From Chromatiales bacterium (GTDB lineage Bacteria; Pseudomonadota; Gammaproteobacteria; SZUA-140), in NCBI GenBank assembly GCA_050486285.1, contig JBJHCZ010000003.1, forward strand, positions 23,886 through 87,885: a stretch of DNA of 64,000 bases. The letters are read 5' to 3'. The translations under genes and the position numbers were made by a program. This document shows, piece after piece, positions 34,056-61,686 of the stretch (within the stretch, counting starts at the first letter, position 1; each line of letters opens with the position of its first letter). The notes beneath the pieces were generated by a model that saw only the letters and a program-made list of their open reading frames with translations, was not told where the DNA came from and ran no database searches.

Positions 34056-34203
34056 TCTGGCAGGCTGATGAAAAAGGCCCGGTGGGTTTTCTCCGCGAAT
34101 GGCTCGCCTCGCTGTCGCTTCGCGGCACCCTTCGGGCTCCGGCGAGGCTGCGCTTGACTTCGCTGCGAAAACCCACCGGGCCTTTTTCATCAGCCTGCCA
34201 GAG
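34056..34203. repeat. ~145-bp structured intergenic repeat, copy 1 (conserved ~85-bp core plus 32-bp perfect terminal inverted repeats)
   Basis: Core GTTTTCTCCGCGAATGGCTCGCCTCGCTG.CGCT.CGCGGCACCCTTCGGGCTCCGGCGAGGCTGCGCTTGACTTCGCTGCG.AAACCC is shared with 58477-58617 and 61539-61686. The flanks CTCTGGCAGGCTGATGAAAAAGGCCCGGTGGG / revcomp are copy-specific. Confidence 0.7.
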
Positions 34204-34204
34204 G

Positions 34205-34510
34205 CTAGATCCTCAGCCGCTCGACGATCCGCCCGCCGACCAGGTGCTCGTCGATGATCTCGTCGAGGTCGCGGCGGTCGCGGTAGCTGTACCAGACGCC
34301 CTCCGGGTAGACGACAGCCGTCGGTCCCAGCGCGCAGCGGCCGAGGCAGCCGGCGCTGTTGACCCGGATCCCGCCCGGGCTCGCGAGCCCGAGCGCCTTG
34401 ACGCGCTCCTTGACGTAGGCGCGCATCGCCTTCGCGTCGTGGTCCTCGCAGCAGGCGCGGCCGTCGTCGCGCTGGTTGGTGCAGAAAAAGATATGGCGGT
34501 TGTAGAACAT
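34205..34510 (-). CDS. Thioredoxin-like [2Fe-2S] ferredoxin
   Basis: Start MFYNRHIFFCTNQR. Cys ligands in FFCTNQRDDGRACC and AGCLGRC. ~100 aa. Confidence 0.7.
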   Translation of the reverse strand: MFYNRHIFFCTNQRDDGRACCEDHDAKAMRAYVKERVKALGLASPGGIRVNSAGCLGRCALGPTAVVYPEGVWYSYRDRRDLDEIIDEHLVGGRIVERLRI

Positions 34511-34599
34511 CGGCAGAAGATACAAGATACACGCGGCGGCAGAAAGGCCCCGAAGGACCCATTGTACCCGATTTACCCGCAATCCCCGGACCCTCGCCC

Positions 34600-35943
34600 T
34601 TGAATCTATCCGAGAATCTGGCTGACCTGATCCAGTCCGAGGCCGACCGCTGCGTCAAATGCGCGCTGTGCGCGCCGCACTGCCCCACTTACGGCCTGAC
34701 CCGCGACGAGGGCGACTCGCCGCGCGGGCGCATCGCGCTGATGCAGGGGCTCGCCGAGGGCCGGCTGTCGGCGGGCGGGCGGCTCGATTTCCACCTCGAC
34801 CGCTGCCTCGCCTGCCGCGCCTGCGAACGCGTCTGTCCGTCCGGCGTGCGCTACGGGCGCCTGATCGATGCGGCGCGCGCATACGGCGCGACCCGCCAGC
34901 GCCCGCTCGGTCGTCCGGGCAGGCTCGCGCGCTGGCTGCTCGACGGCGTAATCCCCGACCGCCGCCGGCTCGCCCGCCTGGCCCGCTGGCTGCGTCTCTA
35001 CCAGCAGAGCGGCGCGCGCCGCCTGCTGCAAGTGTCCGGCCTGCTCCGGCTCATGGGCCGGCAGCGGCTCGATAGCCTGATGCCCGAGATCCCGGCGGCG
35101 CCGCGCTGGCACGGCTACTACCCGCCGGAGGGGAAGATTCGCGGCGAGGTCGCGCTGTTCACCGGCTGTATCGGCAACGTGCTCGATCGCGATGCGCTCG
35201 AGGCCTCGATCCGGTTGCTGAATGCCTGCGGCTACGGCGTCCACGTCCCCGCGGCGCAGACCTGCTGCGGGGGGCTGCACCTGCACGGCGGCGATCTGCG
35301 CCAGGCCGCGGCGCTTGCGCGGCGCAACCTCGACGCCTTCGACGGCCTCGCGAACGGAGCCGGCCTCGCCGCCGTGGTCTATACCGCGAGCGGCTGCGGC
35401 GCGACGCTGGCCGAATACGATCAATGGCCGGCGGCGGACGGCCTCGCGCCGCCGGGACGCTTCGCGGCGCCGGTCGTCGATGTCTGCAGCTTTCTCGAAC
35501 GGAGCGGCGCGCTGGCGGAGCTGGAATTTGCGCGGCTCGATGCGACGGTCGCGGTCCACGACCCGTGTACGCTCAGGAATGTCGTGCGCGCCACGGAGGC
35601 CCCTTACCGGCTGCTCGGCCTCGTCCCCGGTCTCGCTGCGCGTCCGCTGGCGAACAACGCCCGCTGCTGCGGCGCCGCCGGCAGCTATCTGCTGACCGAG
35701 CCGGCCCTCGCCGACGCGCTGCGCGCGGACAAGCTCGCGGCGATCCGCGACGCGGCGGCGGACATCGTCGTCAGTTCGAATCTCGGTTGCGCGCTGTTTC
35801 TGGCGGCGGGTCTGCGCGGGGAAACGGGGGGAAGCGGTCCTGCGGTGATGCACCCGGCGACGCTGCTCGCGCGCCAGCTCGGGATCAGAGCCGGTACGCG
35901 GTCGTCGTCATCACCTTCGACGTCAGCGACATCAGCGTCCTGA
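34600..35943 (+). CDS. glcF: GlcF-like Fe-S oxidoreductase (glycolate oxidase iron-sulfur subunit family)
   Basis: Two 4Fe-4S motifs [12 protein letters not shown] and [12 protein letters not shown], followed by two CCG-type cysteine-rich domains. No glcD or glcE adjacent. Confidence 0.7.
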
Positions 35944-36535
35944 CCGGCGCCGGCAGCGGCGCCCCGCCGGCGGCCAGCGCCGTCGTCGCGTGATGCTGTT
36001 CATCGTCCTTCATCTGCAAGAGAATCGCGCGGCTGCGCGCGTCAGCGGCCGGCAGGCGCTCGAGGTGGTCTTCGAGATGGCGCACGACCTGGCGCTCGGT
36101 CTCGACGATGAAGCCGAGGCTCCACTGGTCGCCGGCCCAGCCGGCCAGCGCGCCGATCGCGAGCGAACCGGTGTACCACAGGGGATTGAGCACGCTGGTG
36201 TGGCCGCCGAGTTCGTCGATGCGCTGCTCGCACCACCGCAGGTGATCGTTCTCCTCCTCCGCCGCGCGCTCCATCTTGTCGCGCACGCCGGGCAGGCGCG
36301 CGGTCAGCGCCTGGCCCTGGTACAGTGCCTGCGCCGACACCTCGCCGGCGTGATTGACGCGCATCAGGCCGATCGCGCGACGGCGCTCGTCGTCGGACAG
36401 TTCGGCCTCGGGGATCGCGGCGGCGGGATCGGGCCGGCCGGTCGGTGCGGGCTTGCCGAACACGGTGCGCAAGCCGCGATCGGCCTGGATCAGGAAGCGG
36501 TCGAACAGATCGTAGTCGCGGGTGGCTTCGGTCAT
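35885..36535 (-). CDS. coq7: Demethoxyubiquinone hydroxylase Coq7 (di-iron)
   Basis: [18 protein letters not shown] and EExEHL-type di-iron motifs ([15 protein letters not shown]). Confidence 0.85.
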
Positions 36536-36548
36536 GCCGGGTCTTATT

Positions 36549-36577
36549 GGGGTCAGAGCCCTTCGGGGTCTGACCCC
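36549..36577. repeat. REP-family hairpin GGGGTCAGAGCC-CTTCGG-GGTCTGACCCC
   Basis: Between the coq7 start and the speD stop. Same GGGGTCAGA arm as the other REP copies. Confidence 0.6.
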
Positions 36578-37386
36578 TATACCTTGGTCATATTGCTGGC
36601 GTAGAAGATCTCGCTCATCTCGCGCTGCAGTGACTGCTTGATCTGCTGCTTCTCGCGCTGCTCGAGATCCTTCTCGCCGGTGCCGAACAGGTAATTGTCG
36701 AGATCGAACTCCTTCAGGATCATCTTGCTGTGGAAGATGTTCTCCTGGTAGACGTTGACGTCGATGATCTGGTAGCGGTCCAGCGTGTCCTTCGACAGGT
36801 AGTTCTGGATCGAATTGATCTTGTGATCGATATAGTGCTTCTTGCCCTTGACGTCGCGGGTGAAGCCGCGCACGCGATAGTCCATGATGACGATGTCGGA
36901 CTCGAAGCTGTGGATCAGGTAGTTCAATGCGCGCAGCGGCGACACCCGGCCGCAGGTCGACACGTCGATGTCGACGCGGAAGGTGCTGATGCCGTTGTCC
37001 GGGTGACTCTCCGGATAGGTGTGCACCGTCAGGTGGCTCTTGTCGAGGTGCGCGAGCACGGTCTCCGGCAAGGGCCCCGGCGCCTCTTCATGCTCGTAGA
37101 CGGGGCTGTCGGTCGCGACCGCTTCCTCGGCGATCAGCATCGTCACGCTCGCGCCCTGGGGATCATAGTCCTGGTGCGCGATGTTCAGGATGGTCGCGCC
37201 GATGATCTCGGAGACGCGGGTCAGAATCTCGGTCAGACGCTCGGCGTTGTAGGCCTCGTCGATGTACTCGATGTACTCGCGCCGGTGCCGCGCGGTCTTC
37301 GCGTAGCAGATGTCATAGATATTGAAGCTCAGGCTCTTGGTGAGATTGTTGAAGCCGTGCAAGCTCAGTTTTCGCTGTTTCGACAT
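36577..37386 (-). CDS. speD: S-adenosylmethionine decarboxylase proenzyme (E. coli type)
   Basis: [29 protein letters not shown] is near-identical in pattern to E. coli SpeD. Confidence 0.9.
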
Positions 37387-37511
37387 CGCGCATAAAGCCC
37401 CAGGGAGAGAAAACGAAAGCCGCCAATCCTAACACAAACAGCGCCGGTGCATCACCTCGCCCGTGCCTGAGCGCTCGACGTCTGCAATTACATTAAAAAA
37501 CTTCCGTCATA

Positions 37512-37931
37512 TCAAGCCGGATCGACCTGTCCCGCGAGCGGCGGATGGTAGATCAGCTGTACCGAGTTGCCGTCCGGATCCCGGCAGTAGAAGCTGCGGG
37601 CGCCGTCGCGGTGGCTGCGCGGCGCGGCCTGCAGCGGCACACCGTGCCCGGCGAGGAAGCGGTGCCAGGCGTCGACGTGCTCCGGGGCGTTCAGTATAAA
37701 TCCAATGTGATCAAGCGCCTGTGGCTCCGGACTCGAGGACGCCGGGGCCGCGCGATGGAGCGCGAGATTGTCGCAGCCGGAGGTCAGGTAGACATTGTCG
37801 GCATCGGGACGCCACTCGACGCGCATGCCGAGCAGCTCGACATAGAAGTGCTCCATCTGCTCGAAGTCGCGGGCATGCAACGCGACGTGGCGCATCCCGG
37901 CCGTCGCCGGGGGCCGCGCTAGGGCGCTCAT
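37512..37931 (-). CDS. VOC/glyoxalase-family protein
   Basis: Glyoxalase fold motifs (HVALHARDFEQMEHFY, GNSVQL). ATGA overlap with the osmC stop. Confidence 0.7.
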   Translation of the reverse strand: MSALARPPATAGMRHVALHARDFEQMEHFYVELLGMRVEWRPDADNVYLTSGCDNLALHRAAPASSSPEPQALDHIGFILNAPEHVDAWHRFLAGHGVPLQAAPRSHRDGARSFYCRDPDGNSVQLIYHPPLAGQVDPA

Positions 37932-38350
37932 GCGCCCTCCCGGATCTCGTAGTCGTGGCTCATCTCGACGCCGGCGCGGCGCATCAGGATCGAGGCCGAG
38001 CAGTATTTTTCGGCGGACAGCTCCACGGCGCGCTTCACCGCGGCCTCGCTCAGGCCCTTGCCGATGACGATGAAATGGATGTGGATCCGGGTGAAGACCC
38101 TGGGCGGCTCGGCGGCGCGCTCCGCCTCGAGCTCGACGATGCAGTCCAGGACCGGCTGGCGCGACTTGCGCAGGATCTCGACGACGTCATAGGCGGTGCA
38201 GCCGCCGGTGCCGAGCAGCAGCAGCTCCATCGGCCGGAAACCCAGGTTGCGGCCGCCGCCGTCCGCGGGTCCGTCGGTGACCAGCGCATGGCCACTGCCC
38301 GACTCGCCGACGAACTGCGCCCCTTCGACCCAGCGGACGCGGGCCTTCAC
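37928..38350 (-). CDS. OsmC/Ohr-family peroxiredoxin
   Basis: GTG start seven nt after AAGGAG. Conserved GCTAYDVVEIL and CSASILM cysteine regions. The 196-aa ATG extension is rejected. Confidence 0.7.
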   Translation of the reverse strand: MKARVRWVEGAQFVGESGSGHALVTDGPADGGGRNLGFRPMELLLLGTGGCTAYDVVEILRKSRQPVLDCIVELEAERAAEPPRVFTRIHIHFIVIGKGLSEAAVKRAVELSAEKYCSASILMRRAGVEMSHDYEIREGA

Positions 38351-38489
38351 GGCCACACTCCTTGCGCGTAAATCGCCATCATATTTCCCTAAACTTTCAC
38401 ACGGAATTACCGATAAGTCCTGACGTAGCGATCGCCCGCAGGCGATAGCAAAAAACCGCCCTGCCAGAGGACGGTATCGGGAATCCATC

Positions 38490-39128
38490 ATGACGCAAAT
38501 TCGTCGAAAAATCATCACTCCCGGGGTCGAAAAGTTCCTCGGCTACTGCCATCGCCGGCGCTATCCGTCGAAGAGCGTGATCATCTATCGTGGCGACGCG
38601 CCGAACTCGCTGTACTACATCGTCGAGGGTTCGGTTGCGGTGCTGCACGAGGACGACGACGGTCACGAGATCGTCCTCGCTTACCTGAACACCGGCGACT
38701 TCTTCGGCGAGATGGGGTTGTTCGACAAGGACAAGGCCGGCCGCAGCGCCTGGGTGCGGGCGCGCGCGCAATGCGAACTCGCCGAGATCAACTACGACAA
38801 GTTCCGCCAGGTCGCCGCGCAACACCCCGAGATCCTGTTCGAGCTGGCGTCGCAGATGGCGCTGCGCCTGCGCCGCACCAGCGGCATGGTCGGCCGGCTC
38901 GCGTTCATGGACGTCTCCGGCCGCGTCGCCCGCACGTTGCTCGAACTGTGCCAGCAGCCGGATGCGATCACCCACCCGGACGGCATGCAGATCCGCATCA
39001 CCCGCCAGGAACTCGGCCGCATCGTCGGCTGCTCGCGCGAAATGGTCGGCCGCGTACTCAAGAACCTCGAGGCCCAGAACCTGATCACCGCCCGCGGCAA
39101 GACCATCGTCGTCTTCGGCACCCGCTGA
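38490..39128 (+). CDS. crp: cAMP receptor protein CRP/Vfr, global transcription regulator
   Basis: Collinear with E. coli CRP over 212 aa (YPSKS.IIY.GD...LYYIV.GSVAVL, SAWVRA...CE.AEI.Y.KFRQ, HTH GCSRE.VGR.LK.LE.QNLI...GKTIVV.GTR). Confidence 0.92.
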
Positions 39129-39135
39129 ACCAAAA

Positions 39136-39176
39136 GGGTCAGACTCGTCTGATTCTCCCCTTCGCGAAGGGGAGGC
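39136..39176. terminator. Tandem hairpins (GGGTCAGAC-TCG-TCTGA then CTCCCCTT-CGCG-AAGGGGAG) between convergent crp and OMP genes
   Basis: On the minus strand the first hairpin is followed by CCCTTTTGG (U-tract), which would terminate the OMP gene. No U-tract on the crp side. Confidence 0.45.
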
Positions 39177-39213
39177 AGGGGGGTTGCGACCGCAGCGAGT
39201 CGCTGGTCGGGTG

Positions 39214-40482
39214 CTAGAAGCGGAATCCGAACTGGAGGGCTGCGCCCAAGTCGTCGCTGTTGCCGGCGACCGCGACATCGAGGTGGACGCCGAACGGCGA
39301 GAAACCGAGGCCGGCGCTGTACACGCCGCTGTCGAGATCATCCGGCAGATCGCTCAGGTTGTGGCGGTAACCGAGCCGGAGTTGCAAAGTGCGGAAGGCA
39401 TCGAACTCGACGCCGAGACCGACGTATTGTGTCTTGCTGTCGAGCCCGGCCGGCTGGTTCTCGGTCAGGTCGAGATCGGCGGCCAGCGTGATCCAGCCGA
39501 GCGCCGGCGGCCGGTACGCAGCGCCGATGCGGGCCATCGGTTCGAGCTTGAACTTGCCGGCAATTTCACCCTGAACATTCGTCGGAGCAAGATCGTATTC
39601 CTGTGAAATCAGGTTCTTTACCGCGATACCTGCCTGCCAGCCGTTGCCGAAGTCTTTCGCGACCCCGATGTCGATATTGAATCCGGAATCGCTGCGCTCG
39701 CCCTGATCCAGGTCGATCTCGACGTTGTCTATGCTGGCCCCCTGGAATCCGTAGTTATAGGTCTGCACCTTGACCAGCTTGGGCGTGACGCCCACTGCAA
39801 TACCGCCCAGCTGATCCAGCTTGTGCGCAAGGCCGATACCCACTTCCGTAAGCAATGCAAAGCGGGCGCGGACGGAAGAAGTGAAATCATCGACAGGACT
39901 GGGGATGTTCCCGTTGCCCTGGGCTGCAGATATGACGCCTTCGATCGCCTCACGGTCCTCCTGGGAATAAACGCTGAACGCGCCTCCGATGACATGCGCA
40001 TTTGCGAATAACGATACCCCGAGCCGCTCTCCGGGCACCCCGATGACGACCGCTGCACTGCCCTCTACTTGCAGCACCTTGTCCGAGATCGCGACGAAAC
40101 GGCTGTTCAGGTCCAAGCCCGCATCGATGAGTTCCTGGCGCGCGGCGTCGAAGTCGCCGGTGTTGAATGCAGTCAGTGCATTGTCGAATCGTTCTATCGG
40201 ATTTGAACTCTCGAAATTATCAATCGCATCGATCACGCTGCCCTGGTCCAGCACCCGACCGCCGATGATCGGGAGTTCGATGCTGAAACGGTCGCGCTCG
40301 CGCTTGACCGCGAGCAGGGCCGGGTTCAGGAAGACCGCGTTGGCGCTGGTGCCGGCGGCGACGCCGGCGCCGCCCATCGCGAAGGAACGCGGGTCCGGGG
40401 AGCTGAACGGCGCAGCGGCGGCGCTGCCGGCAAAGGCCAGCGCCAGCGCCGAGGAAATCATGAGAGAGGTGCGATTGCGCAT
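39214..40482 (-). CDS. Outer-membrane beta-barrel protein, TraF-like family (assignment tentative)
   Basis: Signal peptide, MGGAGVAAGTSANAVFLNPA N-terminal motif, C-terminal ...ALQFGFRF. Confidence 0.55.
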   Translation of the reverse strand: MRNRTSLMISSALALAFAGSAAAAPFSSPDPRSFAMGGAGVAAGTSANAVFLNPALLAVKRERDRFSIELPIIGGRVLDQGSVIDAIDNFESSNPIERFDNALTAFNTGDFDAARQELIDAGLDLNSRFVAISDKVLQVEGSAAVVIGVPGERLGVSLFANAHVIGGAFSVYSQEDREAIEGVISAAQGNGNIPSPVDDFTSSVRARFALLTEVGIGLAHKLDQLGGIAVGVTPKLVKVQTYNYGFQGASIDNVEIDLDQGERSDSGFNIDIGVAKDFGNGWQAGIAVKNLISQEYDLAPTNVQGEIAGKFKLEPMARIGAAYRPPALGWITLAADLDLTENQPAGLDSKTQYVGLGVEFDAFRTLQLRLGYRHNLSDLPDDLDSGVYSAGLGFSPFGVHLDVAVAGNSDDLGAALQFGFRF

Positions 40483-40590
40483 GGGTCGGTGTCCTTTTCG
40501 AATGAGGCCTGACGCGGACTGGCGCCTGTCCGTGGAATATCGGCCTCCAACCTCAGGTCTTTAGCCCCCGAATGGGGGCGCTACCCGGGC

Positions 40591-41388
40591 TTACGAAAAG
40601 AGACGCTGCAACTCTGCGCCGGGATCCTCCGCGCGCATGAAGGCCTCGCCGACGAGAAAGGCGTGCACACCGGCCCCGCGCAATCTCGCGACGACTTCGC
40701 GCGTATGTATCCCGCTTTCAGTCACGACCCGTCGATCGCCGGGGATCGACGGCAGCAGGTCGAGCGTGGTCTCTATCCGGGTCTCGAAGGTGCGCAGGTT
40801 GCGGTTGTTGATGCCGATCAGAGGCGCGCCGAGGGCCAGCGCGCGATCGAGCTCGTCGGCGTCATGGACCTCGACGAGGACATCGAGCCCGAGGTGCGTC
40901 GCGAGTCCCGCGTACTCGGCGAGCCGGGCGTCGCCGAGCGCGGAAACGATCAGCAATATGCAGTCGGCGCCGAGCGCGCGCGACTCGTAGACCTGCCATG
41001 CATCGACGATGAAATCCTTGCGCAAGACCGGCAGCGCGCAGGCGGCGCGGGCCGCCTGCAGGTGGGCGTCATCGCCCTGGAAGTAGTCGCGGTCGGTCAG
41101 CACCGACAGGCACGCCGCGCCGCCCTGTTCATAGGACGCCGCGATCGCCGCCGGATCGAATGCCTCACGCAGCAGGCCGCGGCTCGGCGACGCGCGCTTG
41201 ATCTCGGCGATGACAGCGGCCTCACCGGCGGCGATCTTTCGTTCCAGCGCGGCAATAAATCCCCGCGGCGCCGGCGCCTGCTCGCAGCGCGCACCCAGGT
41301 CGCGCAGCGGCAGCGCCGCGCTGCGCTCCGCGACCTCCTCGGCCTTGCGCCGCAGGATCCTGCGCAGGATATCGGCTTCCGGATTCAC
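40591..41388 (-). CDS. trpC: Indole-3-glycerol phosphate synthase
   Basis: [34 protein letters not shown] and GINNRNL motifs. Confidence 0.9.
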
Positions 41389-42401
41389 GGCAGCTTCGAG
41401 ACCCGCGCCAGTTCCTCGAGCCGGACCCGCCCCTCTCCGCCGGCGATGATTTCGCGCGCACGCAATACACCGTCGGCCAGCGTCGCAGCCAGTCCGGCGA
41501 CATGGATCGCCGCGCCCGCGTTCAGCGCGACGATGTCGGCCGCCGGCCCCGGCTCGCCGTCGAGAACGCCGAGCACGATCGCGAGGCTCTGCGCGCTGCT
41601 GTCGACGACGAGCGCATCGCGCGGCGCTGCGACAAGCCCGAACTCCTCCGGCGAGATCGTATAGCGGGCGACGTCTCCGCCCTTCAGCTCCGCGACATGC
41701 GTCGGGCCGGAGATGCTGATCTCATCCATGCCGTCGGCGGCATGCACGACGAGCACATGCCGGCTGCCGAGCTTGCCGAGCACGCGCGCGACCGGCTCCA
41801 GCCACTGATCGCTGAACACGCCGATGACCTGGTTCGGCGCATGCGCCGGATTGGTCAGCGGACCGAGCAGGTTGAACAGCGTGCGCACGCCCATCTCGCG
41901 ACGCGGACCGATGGCGTGCTTCATCGCGCCGTGGTGCTGCGGCGCAAACATGAATCCGACGCCGGCCTCGTCGATGCAGCGCGCAACCTGCTCGGGCGAC
42001 AGATCGAGCCTGACGCCGGCGGCCTCGAGCAGGTCGGCGCTGCCGGAGCTGCTGGAGACCGAGCGGTTACCATGCTTGGCGACGCGGGCGCCGGCCGCTG
42101 CGGCGACAAAGGCGCTCGCGGTCGAGATGTTGAAGGTGCGGGCGCCGTCGCCGCCGGTGCCGCAGGTATCGACGAGGTGCGTCGGGTCGACCTCGACGCG
42201 CGTCGCGAGCTCGCGCATCAGGCGCGCGGCCGCGGCGATCTCGTCGACGGTCTCGCCCTTCATGCGCAGGCCAACCAGAAAGCCGCCGATCTGCGCCGGC
42301 GTCGCCTGGCCGGTCATGATCAGGCGCATCACCGCGGTCATCTCGCTATCGCTGAGATCGCGACGCTCGGTCACCGCCCGTATCGCCGATTGCATGTCCA
42401 T
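41385..42401 (-). CDS. trpD: Anthranilate phosphoribosyltransferase
   Basis: CGTGGDG...[15 protein letters not shown] and KHGNRSVSS motifs. The start could be any of three nearby in-frame codons. Confidence 0.9.
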
Positions 42402-42417
42402 CACTCACCTGATCCTC

Positions 42418-42450
42418 GGGGTCAGAGTAGACCAAGTCTACTCTGACCCC
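42418..42450. repeat. REP palindrome GGGGTCAGAGTAGAC-CAA-GTCTACTCTGACCCC filling the trpG-trpD intercistronic gap
   Basis: Perfect 15-bp arms. The trpG TAG stop lies inside the right arm. Confidence 0.65.
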
Positions 42451-43025
42451 AAAAAGTTTTTCAGCAGCTGGTGACCGCAGGCGGTCAGGATCGACTCGGG
42501 GTGGAATTGCACGCCCTCGACCGCAAGCTCGCGATGACGCAGGCCCATGATCTCGTCGATGCCGCCGTCGGCGTTCGCGGTCCAGGCCGTGATCTCGAGG
42601 CATTCCGGCAGCGAGGCGCGTTCGACGACCAGCGAATGGTAGCGGGTCGCCTCGAACGGATTCGGCAACCCGCGGAAGACGCCCTCACCGCGGTGATGGA
42701 TCAGCGAGGTCTTGCCGTGCATGATGACGCCGGCATGGACCACGCGGCCGCCATAGACCTGACCGATCGCCTGGTGACCGAGACAGACTCCGAGGATCGG
42801 CATGCGCCCGGCCAGCGCACGAATCACGTCCATCGAGATGCCGGCATCGTCGGGCGTGCCCGGCCCCGGCGAGATCACGATACGCGACGGCGCGAGCCCT
42901 CCGATGCCCTCGAGATCGATCTGGTCGTTGCGCACGACCGTGACTTCCTCGCCGAGCTCGCCGAAATACTGGACGAGGTTCCAGGTGAAGGAGTCGTAAT
43001 TGTCGATCATCAACAACTTGGCCAT
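42438..43025 (-). CDS. trpG: Anthranilate synthase component II (glutamine amidotransferase)
   Basis: Class-I GATase triad region GVCLGHQ...HPES. Confidence 0.9.
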
Positions 43026-43044
43026 CGCCCCCGCTCCAGTCCGA

Positions 43045-45244: not shown

Positions 45245-45258
45245 GGCGTTCTCCCCGC

Positions 45259-48335: not shown

Positions 48336-48337
48336 GA

Positions 48338-49783: not shown

Positions 49784-49822
49784 GGCCGCATCCGTTGTTT
49801 ACAGACTAATTGTTATCCGGGA

Positions 49823-52923: not shown

Positions 52924-52983
52924 AGGGAAACCACTCCGTTCCAACCACGCCTTGTTCCGATTGCAAGCTCGCCGAGGCAACCG

Positions 52984-53652: not shown

Positions 53653-53778
53653 CTCCCCCTCAACTTCAGCTGATGTTAAGTACATTGAACCGGAGTCGCG
53701 ATGACGCCCGATGAACCATTGCCTCGCGACATGCCCCGGAGAAAAGCGGGACGCATCGCCCAGGTTTCGTTATCTGAG

Positions 53779-53792
53779 TGATCGTACGATCA
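53779..53792. promoter_or_regulatory. Perfect 14-bp palindrome TGATCGTACGATCA ~130 bp upstream of actA
   Basis: With flanks it reads GTGATCGTACGATCAA, which loosely resembles FNR (TTGAT-N4-ATCAA) and CRP (TGTGA-N6-TCACA) half-sites. An AT-rich TTAATTATTATTATTAA block follows at ~53911-53940. Confidence 0.35.
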
Positions 53793-54154
53793 AGCTGAAA
53801 GCGATTCGCCGGAAGGACACTCGGTCGGCGAATCCATTTTCCTCCTCGCACCGTCAGCAGCGCCGGGCTTCAAACGACCTCGGTCGTTCACTCGCCACAA
53901 ACTGCCACAACGGGTTTAATTATTATTATTAATGAACTATGGCGTCGAGGGTGGAATGGTAGATCAGGATGCTCGGATATGTCAACGCTGAAGGGCGCGT
54001 GCGAAATCATGCGCGCAGCATATTGCGCCGATGCAGCGATGATATCGAAAACAACGAATCTGGCGCGGTTGCGCGCGCGAATAACTGTACTGTTTATGTC
54101 AGTTTCGCGGCGAATGCCGGTTTTTCGACAAATACCCCAATTGCGGTAGAGGTA

Positions 54155-54913
54155 TCAGGCAGGATTATCGATGTCGATGAACACGAAATCGATGCCGGCA
54201 ACCTCTGCCAGATGACGCCCCAGCGCTTCGACGCCGTAAAGCTCGGTGGCATGATGCCCGGCGGCATAATAATGAATGCCCGCCTCGCGCGCGACATGGG
54301 TCGTGCGTTCGGAGATCTCGCCGCTGATATAGGCATCGACACCGATCCGCGTCGCGGCCTCGATATAATCCTGGGCGCCGCCCGTGCACCATGCGATGCG
54401 CTCTATCCTGCGGGCCTTGCCGGCCACATGCAGCGGCGCGCGACCGAGGGCCTGTCCGATATGTCGCACGAGCGCGGCGGGGTCGCGCGGGGTGCGCAGG
54501 CGGCCGCGGGCCAGCAGCGCCGGCTCGGCGAACGCGGGCGTCACCAGCTCCTGTTCTATGTCGAGCACACGCGCGAGTTGCGCGTTGTTGCCATAGACGG
54601 GATGGGCGTCGAGCGGCAGGTGATAGGCGAGCAGGCTCAGTTCCGCCGACAACAACCGGCGCATGCGCGCGAGCCTGATGCCGCGGAGGCGGAGGTCCTC
54701 GTTTTTCCAGAACCAGCCGTGATGAACCAGCAGCGCATCGGCGCCGCGTTCGATTGCGGCTTCGATCAATGCCAGGCTCGCAGTGACGCCGCCGACGACG
54801 CGGCGGACCGGTGCGCGGCCCTCGACCTGCAATCCGTTCGGGGCGTAGTCCGAAAATCGATGTATTTCAAGCAGCTCGTCGAGATAGCCGGCGAGACCGG
54901 CGGGATCGTTCAT
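54155..54913 (-). CDS. Nif3-family dinuclear metal-centre protein (YbgI-like)
   Basis: FSDYAPNGLQVEG and ALLVHHGWFW motifs typical of Nif3/YbgI. Confidence 0.8.
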   Translation of the reverse strand: MNDPAGLAGYLDELLEIHRFSDYAPNGLQVEGRAPVRRVVGGVTASLALIEAAIERGADALLVHHGWFWKNEDLRLRGIRLARMRRLLSAELSLLAYHLPLDAHPVYGNNAQLARVLDIEQELVTPAFAEPALLARGRLRTPRDPAALVRHIGQALGRAPLHVAGKARRIERIAWCTGGAQDYIEAATRIGVDAYISGEISERTTHVAREAGIHYYAAGHHATELYGVEALGRHLAEVAGIDFVFIDIDNPA

Positions 54914-54992
54914 CGCTTGCCCCGAAGTCATGTCATGCCCTTCATGCCGCTGTAAAAATCGGCGCGGACTTCTGTGCTAGAGTAGCCACAGG

Positions 54993-56165
54993 ATGCAGAT
55001 TCGCAAATTCTTTCCCTGGTTCAGCCAAGGCATTGTGATCGGCGTGGCGGTGGGCCTGCTGGTCGTGTTCCTGGCATCGACCTATCTGATCAAGCCCCGG
55101 CCAGTCGTCGAATTCCGCGAGGTCGCGCGCAGCGAACAGCCGCAATCACCGCTGCCGGGGCCGGTTTCCTATGCAGCGGCCGTCGATATCGCGGCGCCCG
55201 CCGTCGTAAACATACATACCACAAAAACCGTGACCCGGCGCGGATCGCCGCTGCTCGAGGATCCGGCCTTCCGGCGCTTCTTCGAGGAATTCATGGTGCC
55301 GCCGCGCCAGCGCCAGCAGACCAACCTCGGCTCCGGCGTCATCGTCAACGACCAGGGCTTTGTGCTGACCAACAACCACGTCATCGAAGGCTCCGACGAG
55401 ATACAGATCACGTTGCACGACGGGCGTACCGCGAAGGCGGCGATCGTCGGGACCGACCCCGAGAGCGACCTCGCGGTGCTGAAGATCCCGATGAACGACC
55501 TTCAGGCCATCACCTTCGGCGATTCCGAGCGCTTGCGGGTCGGCGACGTCGTGCTGGCGATCGGCAATCCCTTCGGCGTCGGGCAGACCGTGACCCAGGG
55601 CATCGTCAGCGCGACCGGCCGCAGCCAGCTCGGCATCTCGACCTTCGAGAACTTCATCCAGACCGATGCGGCGATCAATCCGGGCAACTCCGGCGGCGCG
55701 CTGATCAACCCGCACGGCGAGCTCCTCGGCATCAACACCGCGATCTTCTCGCGCTCGGGCGGTTCCCAGGGCATCGGTTTCGCGATCCCGACCAGCATCG
55801 TCAGGCAGGTGATGACGCAGATCATCGAGCATGGCGAGGCGATCCGCGGCTGGCTCGGCATCGAAATCCAGACGTTGACGCCCGAACTCGCGGAGTCCTT
55901 CGGCCTGCCCGACACCGCCGGCATCGTCATCGCCGGCGTCCTCTCCGACGGCCCCGCCGCGCGCGCCGGCCTGCAGCCGGGCGACATCGTCACCGCGATC
56001 GGCGGAATCGAGGTACCCGATGCCCGCGCCGCGCTGAACCTGATCGTCAAGGCCATGCCCGGCGAGTCGATCACGCTGAAAGGCCTGCGCAACGCCCAGC
56101 CGATCGAACTCAAGGTCACCGCCAGCAAGCGCCCGCAACCGGGCCACGCCCCGGGACAACGCTAA
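54993..56165 (+). CDS. degS: Periplasmic serine endoprotease DegS/AlgW-type (single PDZ, N-terminal anchor)
   Basis: Catalytic triad regions TNNHV, DLAVLK, GNSGGAL. One PDZ domain. N-terminal TM helix. Confidence 0.85.
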   Translation: MQIRKFFPWFSQGIVIGVAVGLLVVFLASTYLIKPRPVVEFREVARSEQPQSPLPGPVSYAAAVDIAAPAVVNIHTTKTVTRRGSPLLEDPAFRRFFEEFMVPPRQRQQTNLGSGVIVNDQGFVLTNNHVIEGSDEIQITLHDGRTAKAAIVGTDPESDLAVLKIPMNDLQAITFGDSERLRVGDVVLAIGNPFGVGQTVTQGIVSATGRSQLGISTFENFIQTDAAINPGNSGGALINPHGELLGINTAIFSRSGGSQGIGFAIPTSIVRQVMTQIIEHGEAIRGWLGIEIQTLTPELAESFGLPDTAGIVIAGVLSDGPAARAGLQPGDIVTAIGGIEVPDARAALNLIVKAMPGESITLKGLRNAQPIELKVTASKRPQPGHAPGQR

Positions 56166-56169
56166 TCAA

Positions 56170-56195
56170 ATCCCCCTTCGCTTGCGAAGGGGGAT
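56170..56195. terminator. GC-rich hairpin ATCCCCCTTCGC-TTG-CGAAGGGGGAT between convergent degS and tatC
   Basis: 11-bp stem. On the minus strand it is followed by TTGATT; the plus strand has no clear U-tract. Confidence 0.45.
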
Positions 56196-56197
56196 GG

Positions 56198-56965
56198 TCA
56201 GGGCTGCTTCTGCTCCTGCTCCTCCGTCGCCTTGGGCCGGTAGATCCGCGACAGTACCACGCCGAGTTCGAACAGCAGCCACATCGGGATCGCGAGCAGG
56301 GTCTGCGAGATCATGTCCGGCGGTGTCAGCAGCATGCCGAGCACGAAGGCGCCGACGATGACGTAGGGACGCTTGGCGGTGAGCTGCTGCGGCGTCGTCA
56401 CCCCCGCCCACACCAGCACGATGGTCACGATCGGCACCTCGAAGGCCAGCCCGAAGGCGAAGAACAGCTTGAGCACGAAGGACAGGTAATGGCTGATATC
56501 GGTCATCACCGTCACCCCCTCGGGCGCGGCGCTGATCAGGAAACCGAACACCAGCGGAAAGACGACGAAATACGCGAACAGCGCGCCGCCGTAGAACAGC
56601 AGCACGCTGGCGACCAGCAGCGGCAATGCGAGCCTGCGTTCGCTGCCGTACAGCCCCGGCGCGATGAAGCGCCAGACCTGGTGCAGAACGTACGGCATCG
56701 CGACAAAGAACGCGAGCACCAGCGTAAACTTGAACGGCACCAGGAACGGGGCGGCGACTTCGGTCGCGATCATCGTGCTGCCCTGCGGCAGGCGCTCGAT
56801 CAGCGGCACGGCCAGCAGCGTATAGAGGCGGTTCGCGAACGGGAACATCGCGAGGAAGATCACGCCGACGACGAGGACGATGCGCAGGATGCGCGAGCGC
56901 AGCTCGACCAGATGGGCGATCAGCGGCATTTCCGGGTCGGGGGGATACTTACGAGGGTTGGCCAT
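56198..56965 (-). CDS. tatC: Sec-independent protein translocase TatC
   Basis: Start [23 protein letters not shown]. Six TM helices. Confidence 0.9.
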
Positions 56966-57323
56966 CTCGCCCCTGCCCGGACACGCCGGGGGCTGCGGGA
57001 TCGGCGCGCAAACCGGGTTTCGCGTCGCCGGTCTCCCCTGCCTTGCCGCCCCCGGCAGGAGCATCGAGCGGTATCTGCGAACGCGCCTCGTCGAGCAGCT
57101 TGTGCAGTTCCGCGACCTCGCTCTCGCGCTCGACCAGTTTCCTGAGTTCTTCGGCGTGGGCCGCCTCGCGACTCAGCTCGTTCTTGAACTCGCTGGCGAA
57201 CTCGCGGGCGCGCCCGACCCACGAACTGACGCCGCGCAACAGGGCAGGCAGTTCCCGGGGGCCCACCACGACGAGCGCGACCACCGCGATCAGGGCCATT
57301 TCCAAGAAACCGATATCGAACAT
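56949..57323 (-). CDS. tatB: Sec-independent protein translocase TatB
   Basis: [27 protein letters not shown]-terminus. Long acidic tail. Confidence 0.8.
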
Positions 57324-57373
57324 CAGGACTTCACTCCCGCCGCCGCCGGCGGCCTGCGGGGGACCCGCGAGCG

Positions 57374-57613
57374 TCAGGCCCGCTCGTTTTCCTTGGACTC
57401 GACCTTGCCTTCGATGACGCGCTCGCCTTCGCGGTGCTCGACAGACTCCTTCTTGCCCGCGTCGTCCTTGTCCTGTGACGGCTCGCGGACGGCGTCGCGG
57501 AAACCCTTCATCGCGCCGCCCAGATCCTTGCCCATGCCGGCGAGTTTCTTGGTCCCGAACAGCAGCACCACGATCAGCAGGATGATCAGCAGTTGCCAGA
57601 TACTAATGCCCAT
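57374..57613 (-). CDS. tatA: Sec-independent protein translocase TatA
   Basis: [24 protein letters not shown]; 79 aa. Confidence 0.85.
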
Positions 57614-57658
57614 TGCCTGGTTACCTCTCTGGATGTTCGTCCGGCCCGGCCGGGACCG

Positions 57659-57973
57659 TCATGTCCTTGCCGCCTTTTCCTCGATCCCCGAGCGCCCGAA
57701 GCGGCGTTCGAGTTCGGCGAGCACCTGGTCGGGGCCGAGCCCGCGATGGGCGAGCAGGACCAGGGTGTGGAACCACAGGTCGGCGGTTTCATGCACCAGG
57801 GCGGCGTCGTCACCCCCCTGGCCGGCGATCACGACCTCGGTCGCCTCCTCGCCGATCTTCTTGAGGATCGCCCCGGGGCCCTTGCGGAACAGCCCGGCGA
57901 CATAGGAGGCCTCGGGATCCGCCTGCTTGCGCGCCTCGAGGGTCGCGGCAAGTTCTCTGAGTACATGCTCCAT
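57659..57973 (-). CDS. hisE: Phosphoribosyl-ATP pyrophosphatase
   Basis: Start [16 protein letters not shown]. Motif [10 protein letters not shown]. Confidence 0.85.
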
Positions 57974-58011
57974 CGGCTTCGGAACCTCGGTTGCGCCCAT
58001 AATACCGCGTT

Positions 58012-58410
58012 TCAGCCGCCGGATTCACCATATATGTCCGCGGGATCGCGCAGGACGGGCTCCACGGCGCGCCATTCTTCACCTTCCAGCCGGCTGAAGA
58101 AACAGCTCTCGCGGCCGGTATGGCAGGCGATGCCGCCGACCTGTTCGACGCGCAGCAGGATGCAGTCGGTATCGCAATCGAGGCGGATCTCCCGCACCCG
58201 CTGCACATGGCCGGACTGCTCCCCCTTGCGCCACAAGCGTCCCCGCGAGCGCGACCAGAACACCGCCTGGCCGCTGCGCGCGGTCTCGGCCAGGGCCTCG
58301 CGATTCATCCACGCGAACATCAGCACCTTGCCGCCGGCCTCGTCCTGGACGATCGCCGGCACCAGGCCGTCCGGGGTCCACCTGATCTGATCGAGCCAGT
58401 CGCCGCTCAT
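58012..58410 (-). CDS. hisI: Phosphoribosyl-AMP cyclohydrolase
   Basis: LVPAIVQD...[10 protein letters not shown]...[12 protein letters not shown]...ACHTG. Confidence 0.9.
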
Positions 58411-58476
58411 CGGGTCGTCTCTTCGGGGTTTGCCCTATTATGCCCCGAATATACTTCGGGATGATGTCAGATGCGT

Positions 58477-58617
58477 TAACAGGCCGTTGAACGACGCCCG
58501 TCGGGTTTTCTCCGCGAATGGCTCGCCTCGCTGCCGCTGCGCGGCACCCTTCGGGCTCCGGCGAGGCTGCGCTTGACTTCGCTGCGCAAACCCGACAGGC
58601 GTCGTTCAACGGCCTGT
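58477..58617. repeat. ~145-bp structured repeat, copy 2 (intercistronic between hisF and hisI)
   Basis: Same core as copies 1 and 3. Terminal inverted repeats AACAGGCCGTTGAACGACGCCCGTCGGG / CCCGACAGGCGTCGTTCAACGGCCTGTT have one mismatch. Confidence 0.7.
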
Positions 58618-58623
58618 TCCTGT

Positions 58624-59409
58624 TTAATGCGGGTCGTCGAGGCGAACCGGGATGCCGCGGCTGGCCAGATAGCGCTTGGCCTCGCCGACCGTATGCTGGC
58701 CGTAATGAAAGATGCTGGCGGCAAGCACCGCGTCGGCCTTGCCGGCGAGCAGCCCGTCGGCGAGATGCTCGAGGCTGCCGACGCCGCCCGAGGCGATCAG
58801 CGGCACCGGCACCCTGTCGCTGACCGCGGCGTTCAGTTCGAGGTCATAACCGTCGCGGGTGCCGTCCCGGTCCATGCTGGTCAGCAGGATCTCGCCGGCG
58901 CCGAGCGCCGCGACCTGCTCCGCCCATTCGATCGCATCGATGCCGGTCGAACGGCGGCCGCCATGGGTGAACACCTCCCAGCGCGGCGCCCCGCCATTGC
59001 CGACGCGCTTGGCGTCGATCGCGGCGACGATACACTGGGAACCGAAGCGCTCGGCGGCCTGGCGGATGAAATCCGGATGGGCAATTCCGGCGGTATTGAT
59101 CGCGACCTTGTCGGCGCCGGCATTCAGCATGCGGCGGATGTCGGCCAACTCGCGGATGCCGCCGCCGACGGTCAGCGGAATGAACACCTGCTCGGCGACC
59201 TGCTCGACGACATGGACCATGGTCTCGCGCTCTTCGGCGCTGGCGGTGATGTCGAGAAACACCAGTTCGTCGGCGCCCTGGGCGTCATAGGCGCGCGCGA
59301 TCCCGACCGGATCGCCGGCATCGGCAATGTTCTCGAAACGCACGCCCTTGACGACCCGACCCTTGTCGACGTCGAGGCAGGGGATCACGCGTTTGGCAAG
59401 TCCGCTCAT
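58624..59409 (-). CDS. hisF: Imidazole glycerol phosphate synthase cyclase subunit
   Basis: [22 protein letters not shown]. Confidence 0.95.
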
Positions 59410-60143
59410 CCGCCGCAGGCGTCCGCGAGCTTCTGGCACTCGGCGAAGTCGATCCTGTTTTCGTAGAGCGCGCGTCCGAGCACGGCGCCGACGATGCCTT
59501 CATTCGAAACCTCGCACAGGGCACGAATGTCATCGATGCTGGCGATGCCGCCCGACGCGATGACCGGTATCGTCACTGCGCGCGCCAGTTCGGCGGTCGC
59601 GCTCACGTTGACGCCACTCAACATGCCATCGCGGCTGATGTCGGTATAGATGATCGCGGTGACGCCGTCGCGTTCGAAATGACGGGCGAGATCGATGACG
59701 TCGTGATTCGACAGCTTCGACCAGCCGTCGATCGCGACCTTGCCGTCCTTCGCATCGAGCCCGACGATGACATGGCCGGGGTAGGCCAACGCCGCGTCGG
59801 CGACGAAATGCGGCTCGTTGACCGCGCCGGTGCCGATGATGACGTAGCTGACACCGCTGTCGAGGTAACGCTCGATGGTCTCCTCGTCGCGAATGCCGCC
59901 GCCGACCTGGATCGGCACCTCGGGCCAGGTACGGGCGATCTCGCGGATCACCTTGGCATTGACCGGCTTGCCCTGGATCGCGCCGTTGAGGTCGACGATG
60001 TGCAGGCGTCGTGCGCCGGCCTCCACCCATCGCCCCGCCATCGCCACGGGGTCGTCGGAAAAGACCGTCGAATCGTCCATGCGCCCCTGGCGCAGACGAA
60101 CGCACTGGCCATCCTTGAGATCGATGGCGGGTATCAACAGCAT
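59406..60143 (-). CDS. hisA: ProFAR isomerase
   Basis: [21 protein letters not shown] overlap with hisF. Confidence 0.95.
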
Positions 60144-60202
60144 GACTTCTCCCTCATCAGCATGATTGGCGGATAACGGTCACCGACGCTGCCGGTCGCG
60201 GC

Positions 60203-60847
60203 TCAGGGGGCCCCGTCCCAGGCAATGAAGTTCGCGAGCAGGGCGAGGCCGGCGCGCTGGCTTTTCTCGGGATGAAACTGCACGGCGAACATGTTATCGC
60301 GCGCGATTGCGGAAACGAAAGTCTCGCCGTACTCCGTCGTCGCGGCGACGACCGTCCCGTCGCGCGGCCGCACATGGTAGCTGTGCACGAAATAGAAGCG
60401 GCTGTCCTGCGCAATGCCTTCCCACAGCGGGTGGGGACGGGCGTAGTGCACGCCGTTCCAGCCCATGTGCGGGATCTTGCGCCGACCGCCCGCGTCCTCT
60501 GCGGCAGGCGCGACGAAACGGACGGTCTCGCCGGGAATGATGCCGAGTCCGGCGGTGCCGCCGTTTTCCTCGCTGCTGTCCATCAGTGCCTGCATGCCGA
60601 GACAGATGCCGAGAAACGGCCGTTTCGCCGCGCATTCGCGGACGACGTCGTCGAGTTCGAGGCGGTGCAGTTCGGACATGCAGTCGCGCAGCGCGCCGAC
60701 GCCGGGGAACACGACGTGGTCGGCGGCGAGGATGCGCTGCGGATCATAGCTCACGACCACGCGGCAGTCGCCGCCGGCATATTCCAGCGCGCGCGATACG
60801 GAACGGATGTTGCCCATCCCGTAGTCGATCACCGCTACCGTCGCCAT
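60203..60847 (-). CDS. hisH: Imidazole glycerol phosphate synthase glutaminase subunit
   Basis: Start MATVAVIDYGMGN. GATase triad GICLGMQ...HPEKS. The 334-aa ORF extension is rejected. Confidence 0.9.
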   Translation of the reverse strand: MATVAVIDYGMGNIRSVSRALEYAGGDCRVVVSYDPQRILAADHVVFPGVGALRDCMSELHRLELDDVVRECAAKRPFLGICLGMQALMDSSEENGGTAGLGIIPGETVRFVAPAAEDAGGRRKIPHMGWNGVHYARPHPLWEGIAQDSRFYFVHSYHVRPRDGTVVAATTEYGETFVSAIARDNMFAVQFHPEKSQRAGLALLANFIAWDGAP

Positions 60848-60896
60848 TGCACCCTGTCCATCATTCAGCCGGAAACCGGACGATATCAGAATCCGC

Positions 60897-61490
60897 TCAG
60901 AGGCTGCCCTTGGTCGACGGCATGATGCCCCGTCCGCGCGGATCCGGCTCGGCCGCGGCGCGCAGCGCACGGCCGAAGGCCTTGAACACTGTCTCGATGA
61001 TGTGATGCGCATTGACGCCGCGCAGGCAGTCGATATGTACGGTCGCCTGCGCGTGGTTGACGAACGCGCGGAAGAACTCCTGGAACAGGTCGACGTCCAT
61101 GTTGCCGACGCGGGCGCGCGGAAACGAGACGTGATACTCAAGACCGGGCCGCCCCGACAGGTCGATGACGACTCGCGACAGCGCCTCGTCGAGCGGGACG
61201 CAGGCATGGCCGTAACGACGCAGACCGGCCTTGTCGCCGACCGCCTTCGCGAAGGCCTGGCCGAGCACGATGCCGATGTCCTCGACGGTGTGGTGGTCGT
61301 CGATGTGCACGTCGCCCTCGGCCAGGACCTCGAGGTCGATCATGCCGTGACGCGCGATCTGTTCCATCATGTGGTTCAGGAACGGCACCGGCGTCTCGAA
61401 CTTCGACTGCCCCGTGCCGTCGAGATTGACGGTCACCGAGATCCCGGTCTCCCGGGTCTTGCGATTGACTGCGGCCTTGCGCTCCCCCAT
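60897..61490 (-). CDS. hisB: Imidazoleglycerol-phosphate dehydratase
   Basis: [18 protein letters not shown]...HHTVEDIGI...HHIIE. Monofunctional, 197 aa. Confidence 0.95.
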
Positions 61491-61538
61491 CTGCCCTCTC
61501 CGGTAAATCGTATATATGATGTCACATCGATTGCCGTC

Positions 61539-61686
61539 GCGCTAACCTGCTGTTGACAAGGCCCGGTGTGTTTTCTCCGCGAATGGCTCGCCTCGCTGCC
61601 GCTGCGCGGCACCCTTCGGGCTCCGGCGATGCTGCGCTTGACTTCGCTGCGCAAACCCACCGGGCCTTGTCAACAGCCGGTTAGCG
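61539..61686. repeat. ~145-bp structured repeat, copy 3 (intercistronic between hisC and hisB)
   Basis: Core identical to the other copies bar a few substitutions. Terminal inverted repeats GCGCTAACCTGCTGTTGACAAGGCCCGGTG / revcomp with one mismatch. Confidence 0.7.

Follow-up and report, generated by a model that had tools for sequence, protein, structure and literature searches.

A family of hairpin-forming intergenic repeats with an invariant core and hypervariable complementary arms at gene 3' ends in Chromatiales

The closest described counterparts of the element considered here, a repeat of about 145 bp present in three copies (A, B and C) in a 64,000-nt stretch of a Chromatiales bacterium genome (contig JBJHCZ010000003.1, positions 23,886 to 87,885; hereafter the window), are the extragenic palindromic repeats called REP sequences and their hairpin-forming doublets (REPINs), the miniature transposable elements with inverted repeats (MITEs) and the attC sites of integrons. 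The relevant MITEs comprise Correia/NEMIS in Neisseria, ERIC/IRU and YPAL in enterobacteria and Yersinia, and bcr1 in Bacillus; RNase III acts on Correia hairpins, the effect of ERIC on mRNA stability varies with its orientation, and both Correia and ERIC display a TA target duplication. Base-pair compensatory changes and a 5-bp direct target duplication are known for bcr1 (PMC3184786). REPs are defined by a short imperfect palindrome with an unpaired GTAG or CGTC end tag (PMC3733652), and compensatory changes keeping the hairpin have been reported for REPINs (PMC3116915, PMC3733652). Based on the alignments, folds and comparisons with relatives presented here, the three window sequences are copies of an undescribed family of hairpin-forming repeats, a new member of the palindromic intergenic mobile repeats whose conservation pattern is the reverse of that of REPINs and classical MITEs.

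The likeness to REPs and REPINs lies in an extragenic location, mostly downstream of open reading frames (ORFs) and between unidirectional or convergent genes, possibly in a long hairpin whose two conserved boxes flank a spacer in inverted arrangement, in tens or more copies per genome and in the lack of an obvious direct target duplication. However, REPINs have conserved ends and a variable middle, whereas the window family has an invariant 79-nt middle and hypervariable outer arms of about 35 bp. The unit is also longer than a typical REP (20-40 bp), and no GTAG or CGTC end tag was found on the element ends, CGTC occurring only inconsistently inside some arms (CCGTCGA). The inverted Box 1 and Box 2 around a variable centre, described below, are in part reminiscent of a REPIN, but the long hypervariable outer arms are foreign to REPINs. 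With the MITEs listed above the family shares a length of 100-170 bp, long hairpins, a position near or overlapping gene ends that is sometimes intercistronic, and presence/absence differences between related strains. Those MITEs have conserved terminal inverted repeats and short duplications, whereas here the terminal repeats are about 50% identical between copies and no duplication is visible at the resolved sites; conserved terminal repeats are therefore lacking as a MITE hallmark, although a related metagenome subfamily does have conserved 16-nt arms (GCGGGTCGGGGGCTTG). Judged without alignment to their consensus sequences, no similarity to Correia, ERIC, YPAL or bcr1 was seen. An earlier reading of this DNA from its letters alone (the sequence-only reading) had called the repeats MITE/ERIC-like, which remains valid in the broad sense of dispersed insertions but not in the strict sense of conserved terminal repeats and direct target duplications. 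Integron attC sites also form hairpins with conserved inner boxes and a variable-length terminal structure at gene 3' ends, and their recognition as folded single strands invites comparison with the window family. Nevertheless, the ends of the present elements (GTTAACG, GTTAGCG) do not fit RYYYAAC/GTTRRRY, and the elements are dispersed in housekeeping operons (his, rplM) rather than in cassette arrays beside an integrase.

All three copies lie in the same orientation on the + strand. Copy A (34056-34203) comprises a 5' arm (34056-34089), the core (34090-34168), with a junction T at 34090, and a 3' arm (34169-34203); copy B (58477-58618) comprises a 5' arm (58477-58508), core (58509-58587) and 3' arm (58588-58618); and copy C (61539-61687) comprises a 5' arm (61539-61573), core (61574-61652) and 3' arm (61653-61687). 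Their three-way alignment displays a nearly invariant central part and divergent flanks, the 79-nt core being about 98% identical among the three, with one substitution in copy C (GCGAT). A 44-nt core probe with at most one mismatch finds exactly three sites in the window, with 0 expected in shuffles, which confirms the positions and orientation first read from the sequence, and neither nhmmer nor blastn revealed further copies in the 64-kb window. The strictly palindromic part of the arms begins at GGGTTT/AAACCC and runs outward over 31-39 bp, so that the pattern initially described, a core of some 85 bp bracketed by 28-32-bp inverted repeats, is correct but its dimensions are slightly revised. 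When extended into the core edge, the arms of copies A, B and C span 47, 41 and 48 nt with 96%, 90% and 88% complementarity, respectively. The palindrome of copy A reaches 34053-34205 and touches the stop codon (cta, 34205-34207) of a ferredoxin-like gene (fdx), and that of copy C reaches 61536-61690. In copy B, a 6-7-nt tandem duplication of cctgtt (58613-58624, the second unit at 58619-58624) lies at the outer 3' arm end and shifts the hisF stop codon (tta, 58624-58626) outside the palindrome; this duplication is missing in the orthologous copy of a related genome (locus L014), where the hisF stop is part of the arm terminus. The folding energy of the full elements is -88 to -108 kcal/mol for RNA (z = -7.6 to -14, either strand) and -57 to -68 kcal/mol for DNA.

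Within the core, Box 1 (CTCCGCGAATGGCTCGCCTCG; 34091-34111, 58510-58530 and 61575-61595) is invariant in all copies and in the wider superfamily, and Box 2 (GGCTGCGCTTGACTTCGCTGCG; 34146-34167, 58565-58586 and 61630-61651), whose superfamily form is GGCTGCGCTYKAYTTCGCTKCG, is its imperfect inverted partner. The helix between them includes three pyrimidine-pyrimidine mismatches, a 1x4 internal loop, a bulge and two G.U pairs, all invariant. Between the boxes, a centre of variable length (34112-34145 in copy A) contains two mini-hairpins, GCCGC-TNC-GCGGC, in degenerate form GYCGC-TNC-GCGGC, and CCC-TNC-GGG, and is swapped in relatives for shorter or longer inserts. Triloop variation is confined to the middle base, reading TNC on the + strand and GNA on the - strand, and the latter matches the stable GCGAAGC-type mini-hairpin; this pattern supports the reality of the small hairpins without favoring either strand. 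The arms follow a loose consensus, YTRRCMGSCNGYYGAR and CCCGNNGGGTTT separated by 4-9 variable nucleotides, with a T.C mismatch at the arm/core junction in most copies. Their termini conform to YTRRC (CTAGC, CTGAC, TTAAC and similar), and the terminal triplet (T-R-R) consequently reads TAG, TGA or TAA inward from either side. A hammerhead-like CUGAUGA...GAAA in an arm of copy A was discarded, as it sits in a perfectly paired hypervariable stem and is missing from the other copies; sigma-54 and sigma-70 promoter readings of Box 1 and Box 2 were considered from the sequence and rejected. The variable arm segments have no guide-like relation to their own flanks (longest common substring 6.0 versus 6.1 in controls).

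The family extends well beyond the window. A core 22-mer occurs at 20 loci of the GTDB genome collection, all in one fragmented metagenome-assembled genome (MAG) of an uncultured Chromatiales bacterium (CAYLKC01), in which nhmmer detects 22-23 occurrences; the sequence-only reading had described a repeat family, and this related genome (about 90% nucleotide identity) adds at least 22 copies. Its hisF/hisI region (L014) is orthologous to that of the window, and the 90.6% identity of the flanks indicates a different species. Several of the CAYLKC01 loci fall at the ends of contigs, where a repeat that interrupts assembly would be expected, and such repeats may also create chimeric or rearranged contigs in metagenomes; MAG and metagenome contigs are unreliable precisely at repeats. 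A Box 1 20-mer retrieves 25 metagenome loci, corresponding to about 19 elements and six chance coding matches encoding LREWLAS. Window-type copies are found in other samples (L027, L032, L040, L042, L043, L044, and the truncated L035), and a second subfamily has a longer core region of 115 nt (113 nt in L041). Eight loci of this long-centre subfamily carry the conserved 16-nt arms mentioned above (L021, L024, L025, L033, L036, L037, L039, L045) and two others different arms (L026, L041); L022 is a minimal form with a 46-nt core and L030 has another centre. Across the superfamily, Box 1 and Box 2 are constant, and variation affects the centre, including its length, and the closing stems. Members of the long-centre subfamily have a conserved CTGATCG after the 3' arm (L021, L024, L033, L036, L041, L045), which in several loci opens a second, variable palindrome (e.g. 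TGATCGCTCA...TGAGCGATCA), so that these elements look composite. Copies also decay, as attested by truncated or interrupted ones: Box 2 is lost to low-GC sequence in L040 (~530-600), and in L035 (~4300-4340) an outer arm is fused straight to Box 1, without Box 2. A search of Rfam 15 with the window and six variant loci returned no match over any element, at gathering thresholds or even at E-values up to 1-5; blastn against a plasmid collection gave no match, Box 1 and Box 2 patterns gave a single chance coding match in viral contigs, a search of the accessible literature for the Box 1 sequence found no paper, and exact look-ups with the window HisI and with P0241 returned no contig.

Conservation of the core greatly exceeds that of the arms, the flanks and the neighboring coding DNA. 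Among 17 full copies, the core has a mean pairwise identity of 97.9% and the 36-nt arms one of about 50%. In an alignment of 18 copies, 97.3% of the cells are paired, versus 86.0% (sd 0.6) after shuffling and 35-45% when the partners are slid; changes on both sides affect 22 of the 56 pairs (114 cells), all of them in the arms, whereas core pairs never vary, and just 11 arm cells display one-sided (wobble) changes. Pairwise arm alignments contain 841 Watson-Crick matches, 16 G.T and 7 A.C pairs, 16 other mismatches and 8 gaps, the 16 to 7 ratio giving no significant strand call. The early observation that the arms differ between copies but remain complementary within each copy is thereby borne out, with covariation far above controls. 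The comparison of copy B with its ortholog L014 illustrates the same contrast: nine of 63 arm positions differ and none of the 79 core positions (p ~5e-4, a hypergeometric estimate), and the arm changes are compensated, with a 1-nt deletion on both arms and GTCG/CGAC versus GGTG/CACC. Different copies show opposite 'corrections' of the T.C mismatch at the junction, namely T-A in copy A and G-C in L004 and L018. The consensus core is the same in the window and MAG species, whose coding DNA is about 10% different; since concerted evolution alone would let two consensus sequences drift, some selection on the core sequence appears to be required. Taken alone, the core is no more stable than shuffles (z of -0.5 to +0.1 as RNA or DNA, on both strands), and what is conserved is thus its sequence rather than an exceptional stability.

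Contigs of relatives, reached via HisB and ferredoxin homologues and 78-85% identical to the window at the nucleotide level in the his region, demonstrate that the window copies are gained insertions. The hisC-hisB spacer is empty in relatives and measures 62-78 nt versus 208 nt in the window, the empty hisF-hisI spacer 13-82 nt versus 213 nt, and the empty fdx-rplM spacer of relative L053 122 nt versus 286 nt. Four sites that carry an element in the window or MAG lineage thus lack one in relatives, the fourth being L005 in the MAG, where genes for a diguanylate cyclase and a cNMP-binding protein converge and the element runs exactly from stop to stop, giving TAG to both; a relative of this site (L056) has a 20-nt spacer and two TGA stops. 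At fdx/rplM, the empty site reads ATCTAG followed by GGACCCACCCTTGCC, the L053 continuation after TAG starting with GGACCC, and the filled site reads ATCTAG followed by CCTCTGGCAGG...CCTGCCAGAGG and then CGGGTTTGACCCTTGCC, which places the insertion directly after TAG and before conserved downstream sequence, without a direct repeat. At hisC/hisB, all four empty sites already contain the hisB-proximal outer arm GGTTAGCGCGAC, which is therefore ancestral host sequence, the outer 5' arm of copy C (GTCGCGCTAACC) being its reverse complement; the hisC-proximal end bears an inverted copy, GTTGCGCTAACC, and copy B has similar ends (GCGTTAAC). Either the palindrome grew outward by copying one flank, or the element landed beside an end-like sequence. 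A check for target-site duplications against the empty sites found no direct repeat of at least 3 bp at fdx/rplM or hisC/hisB, a 1-2-bp duplication being possible, and the flanking symmetry at these junctions is inverted instead. An IS5-type YTAR target duplication was likewise set aside, the non-palindromic termini being inverted and not direct.

The insertions are tightly associated with stop codons. In ORFs called heuristically by GC content at third codon positions (GC3), an inward-reading ORF with coding-like GC3 stops within 30 nt of the element end in 23 of 24 occurrences, and within 5 nt in 17; flanking ORFs reading away on both sides are found in none of the 24. Among convergent pairs, both stops fall within the arm termini in L005 and L019, and lie 0-27 nt from the element ends in L007 and L011. 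Copy B has changed the end of a protein, HisF terminating as ...RLDDPH* in the window versus ...RLDT* in an empty-site relative, with the stop in the arm terminus. Small palindromic mobile DNA can thus reshape the ends of essential genes, having rewritten the C-terminus of hisF, supplied stop codons and entered the his operon. For E. coli REPs, Liang, Rudd and Deutscher are said to have found in 2015 that a hairpin so near the stop codon can affect translation termination.

Taken together, these data make it probable that the family consists of dispersed, non-autonomous palindromic DNA repeats of the broad REP/REPIN and MITE-like class, inserted at gene 3' ends, with a core under selection and arms whose complementarity is maintained at the DNA level. 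The core, an imperfect hairpin of Box 1 and Box 2, would serve as a sequence-specific recognition module for a mobilizing enzyme acting in trans; the absence of target duplication and the imperfect hairpin nature of the conserved part favor, as the most plausible candidate, an HUH tyrosine transposase of the RAYT, TIRYT or IS200 type, able to recognize hairpins or single-stranded DNA. Enzymes of this sort read imperfect hairpins in single-stranded DNA without leaving a duplication, REPINs providing the precedent (PMC3116915, PMC3733652). Selection for recognition, together with gene conversion between 79-nt identical cores, probably keeps the core uniform, and gene conversion could carry the inner arm on both sides and so mimic compensation. 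The arms themselves are probably kept complementary by intra-strand template switching (quasipalindrome correction). Template switching at quasipalindromes is an established mutational mechanism in bacteria; it perfects imperfect inverted repeats in E. coli (PMC7202029), and the upkeep of perfect inverted repeats in proteobacteria at large has been attributed to it as a proposal (PMC5941160). Such correction accounts for arms with near-perfect Watson-Crick pairing, for the substitutions and the indel that are compensated, for a junction repaired in two directions and for the outward growth at hisC/hisB (PMC7202029, PMC5941160), but it is a mutational process and not an element family, and leaves the origin, spread and core conservation unexplained. 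The near absence of wobble, the compensated indel, the two-way junction repair and the extension of a palindrome into host sequence fit this DNA-level upkeep better than selection on RNA. Hence, of the inference originally drawn from the compensatory pattern, the long hairpin is substantiated, whereas a specific pointer to an RNA structure is not, given the almost purely Watson-Crick arms, the occurrence of both orientations and the unremarkable stability of the core. Very strong hairpin covariation that probably stems from a DNA-level process is a warning against taking compensatory changes as proof of a functional RNA. Once transcribed, the element would form a perfect duplex of about 35 bp in a 3' untranslated region (UTR) or in a his intercistronic spacer, without a U-tract, and would serve as a target of RNase III and/or block exonucleases instead of terminating transcription; such an RNA effect is likely a consequence of the element and not its established reason.

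Several observations weigh against this interpretation. The outer 12 nt of one arm at hisC/hisB are ancestral host sequence, which simple cut-and-paste does not predict. The perfect core of the orthologous hisF/hisI copies since the species split is not explained by selection for transposability alone and would call for gene conversion or host-level selection. In co-directional contexts the copies are biased in orientation, six being antisense and one sense (L008), which could reflect an RNA-level or a replication-strand constraint; a GC-skew check of the replication strand was uninformative (8 of 20 loci positive). Just four sites are resolved against empty relatives, hisF/hisI and L005 being too diverged for exact junctions. 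Finally, no transposase or other partner gene was identified, tblastn with a RAYT sequence giving no match in about 400 kb of loci, which is a weak negative. With respect to orientation, the core at the hisB site of L043 is inverted relative to the window. In this locus (780-1100), as in L010 (4400-4529), the hisB-proximal arm is joined via the inverted core to the arm and 3' end of an anmK-like gene and not to hisC, and the hybrid arms of L043 are not complementary, which reflects either a chimeric assembly or a recombination event inside the cores of two copies.

Other palindromes of the lineage are relevant to the candidate enzyme. REP-like palindromes built on GGGGTCAGA...TCTGACCCC are present in the window (5254-5292, 32838-32926, 36545-36581 and 42416-42452), in L053 (4385-4439) and in L046 (7871-7906). 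A GGGGWSAS consensus has been reported for inverted repeats flanking TIRYT tyrosine-transposase genes (PMC3733652), and the fit of the GGGGTCAGA-type palindromes to this consensus suggests that an HUH transposase system is present in the lineage. A second, unrelated hairpin repeat family of the same design was also observed, in the window (14545-14651 and 14709-14820) and in L019 (757-814 and 3989-4046), with a conserved core of about 55 nt (ACGCTGTnAATACnTCCCTGTACGCTC..CGGCCGCnTCCTGCGGCCG) and 28-32-bp arms that differ per copy but are perfectly complementary; the cores of the two adjacent window copies are in opposite orientations. The existence of a second family of like design hints at a shared process.

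The main alternative, which we regard as unlikely, is that the element is a cis-acting RNA module selected by the host, working through its hairpin and conserved internal loops to stabilize mRNA, to offer RNase III/E a processing site or to bind a protein in the 3' UTR. Both the conserved core and the covarying arms would then reflect selection on an RNA transcribed with the upstream gene. The location of the elements right after stop codons and never in divergent promoter regions would suit this proposal, as would the 6 to 1 orientation bias, the identical core in species with about 10% flank difference, the triloops changing at their middle base alone (UNC for the + strand, GNA for the - strand) and the extremely stable stems, and read-through within the his operon is expected in the absence of a U-tract. 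However, the near absence of wobble in arms that vary almost everywhere is atypical of RNA covariation, both orientations occur (L008; L043 versus copy C), and on neither strand does the core stand out thermodynamically. The corresponding his and rplM loci of close relatives function without the element, which is therefore not needed there; the G.T and A.C counts (16 versus 7) designate no clear functional strand, the favored one being antisense to most upstream genes, and no Rfam family matches. Quite unlikely too, in our judgment, is the idea that both hairpin families constitute a distinct class of hairpin mobile elements, in which the asymmetric, imperfectly paired core alone is recognized by the enzyme, the long arms vary freely and are rebuilt or perfected by hairpin-templated synthesis, the core can flip between the arms and the termini deliver stops, or else that the invariant core is an RNA or protein-binding 3' UTR module that the host exploits. 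Should the core prove to be what a hairpin-specific transposase or an RNA-binding factor grips, substrate recognition by that factor would be defined by variable arms around a fixed core.

There is only a small chance that the core (Box 1, centre and Box 2) is mobile on its own and enters the loops of unrelated hairpins already in place, for example REPs or terminators. Arms about 50% different around identical cores would be explained in this way, and there are known insertion sequence (IS) elements that target REP loops (IS1397, cited in PMC3116915). In L037, a related element holds a foreign palindrome nested in its centre (6484-6527), which is perfect and has 22-bp arms (CGCAATAACAGGGACGCACCCATGGGTGCGTCCCTGTTATTGC), and the empty hisF-hisI spacer of L046 has a small hairpin whose 3' arm is retained beside copy B. 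Nevertheless, the empty fdx/rplM and hisC/hisB sites contain no arm-like hairpin, the consensus shared by the arms (YTRRCMGSCNGYYGAR...CCCGNNGGGTTT) makes them homologous parts of the element, and a palindrome scan of the window and about 400 kb of loci found no 'empty' hairpin of the arm type, the regular-expression matches being chance occurrences in coding DNA. The chance is slighter still that the elements are repeated factor-independent, bidirectional transcription terminators, as their position at gene 3' ends, often between convergent genes, and their very stable GC-rich stems might indicate: no T/U run follows the stem on either strand, a terminator scan of 33000-35000 found 0 sites, two copies are located upstream of hisB and hisI within the his operon, a place where efficient termination would do harm, and a terminator has no need for a 79-nt invariant asymmetric core. 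As for the recurrent + strand frame (FLREWLASL...), open in all three copies and sharing the LREWLAS peptide with unrelated real proteins through chance matches (L023, L028, L031, L034, L038 and L055), the possibility that it encodes a real small protein is negligible, in agreement with the doubt already expressed in the sequence-only reading, given that no start codon with a ribosome-binding site was seen before it, that it is antisense to, and lies within, intergenic hairpins, that centres of 46, 72, 99, 103, 108, 113, 115 and 147 nt in relatives break the frame, and that its flanking 'codons' are hypervariable arms.

The gene context was confirmed with NCBIfam, and all the genes flanking the three copies (fdx/rplM, hisF/hisI and hisC/hisB) are on the minus strand, as originally annotated. 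The 2Fe-2S ferredoxin-like gene fdx (34205-34582) has its stop abutting the 3' end of copy A, and its true start is probably later than the ORF start, homologues being 101 aa long. On the other side of copy A, rplM (33490-33918) is followed by rpsI (33087-33536), and a promoter-like site on the minus strand (TTGCCT-17-TAGAAT, 34041-34013), near-identical in relative L053, is located between copy A and rplM. Copy A, lying upstream of this conserved site, would thus be a 3' UTR element of the ferredoxin gene and not a strictly intercistronic one; the original proposal that all copies reside within polycistronic units would apply to the two his copies only. Copy B separates hisF (58624-59439), whose C-terminus it has changed, from hisI (58012-58410), located 66 nt downstream in the sense of the genes; copy C separates hisC (61699-62820), whose stop is 11 nt from the palindrome, from hisB (60897-61490), 48 nt downstream in the gene sense.

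Both his insertions sit just upstream of a motif of the TGTGACATCAT type. This motif is found about 35 nt upstream of hisB (61516-61524), preceded by GGTTAGCGC, and is kept in the closer empty-site relatives, while it reads TGTGCGATCAT in the most distant ones (L051/L052). A similar ATCTGACATCAT is present upstream of hisI (58461-58469), the minus-strand form of these sites being TGACATCAT, and the motif may correspond to an internal his promoter or regulatory site. The gene for tRNA-Gln (CTG), on the minus strand (32952-33025), adjoins the 89-nt GGGGTCAGA-type palindrome at 32838-32926.

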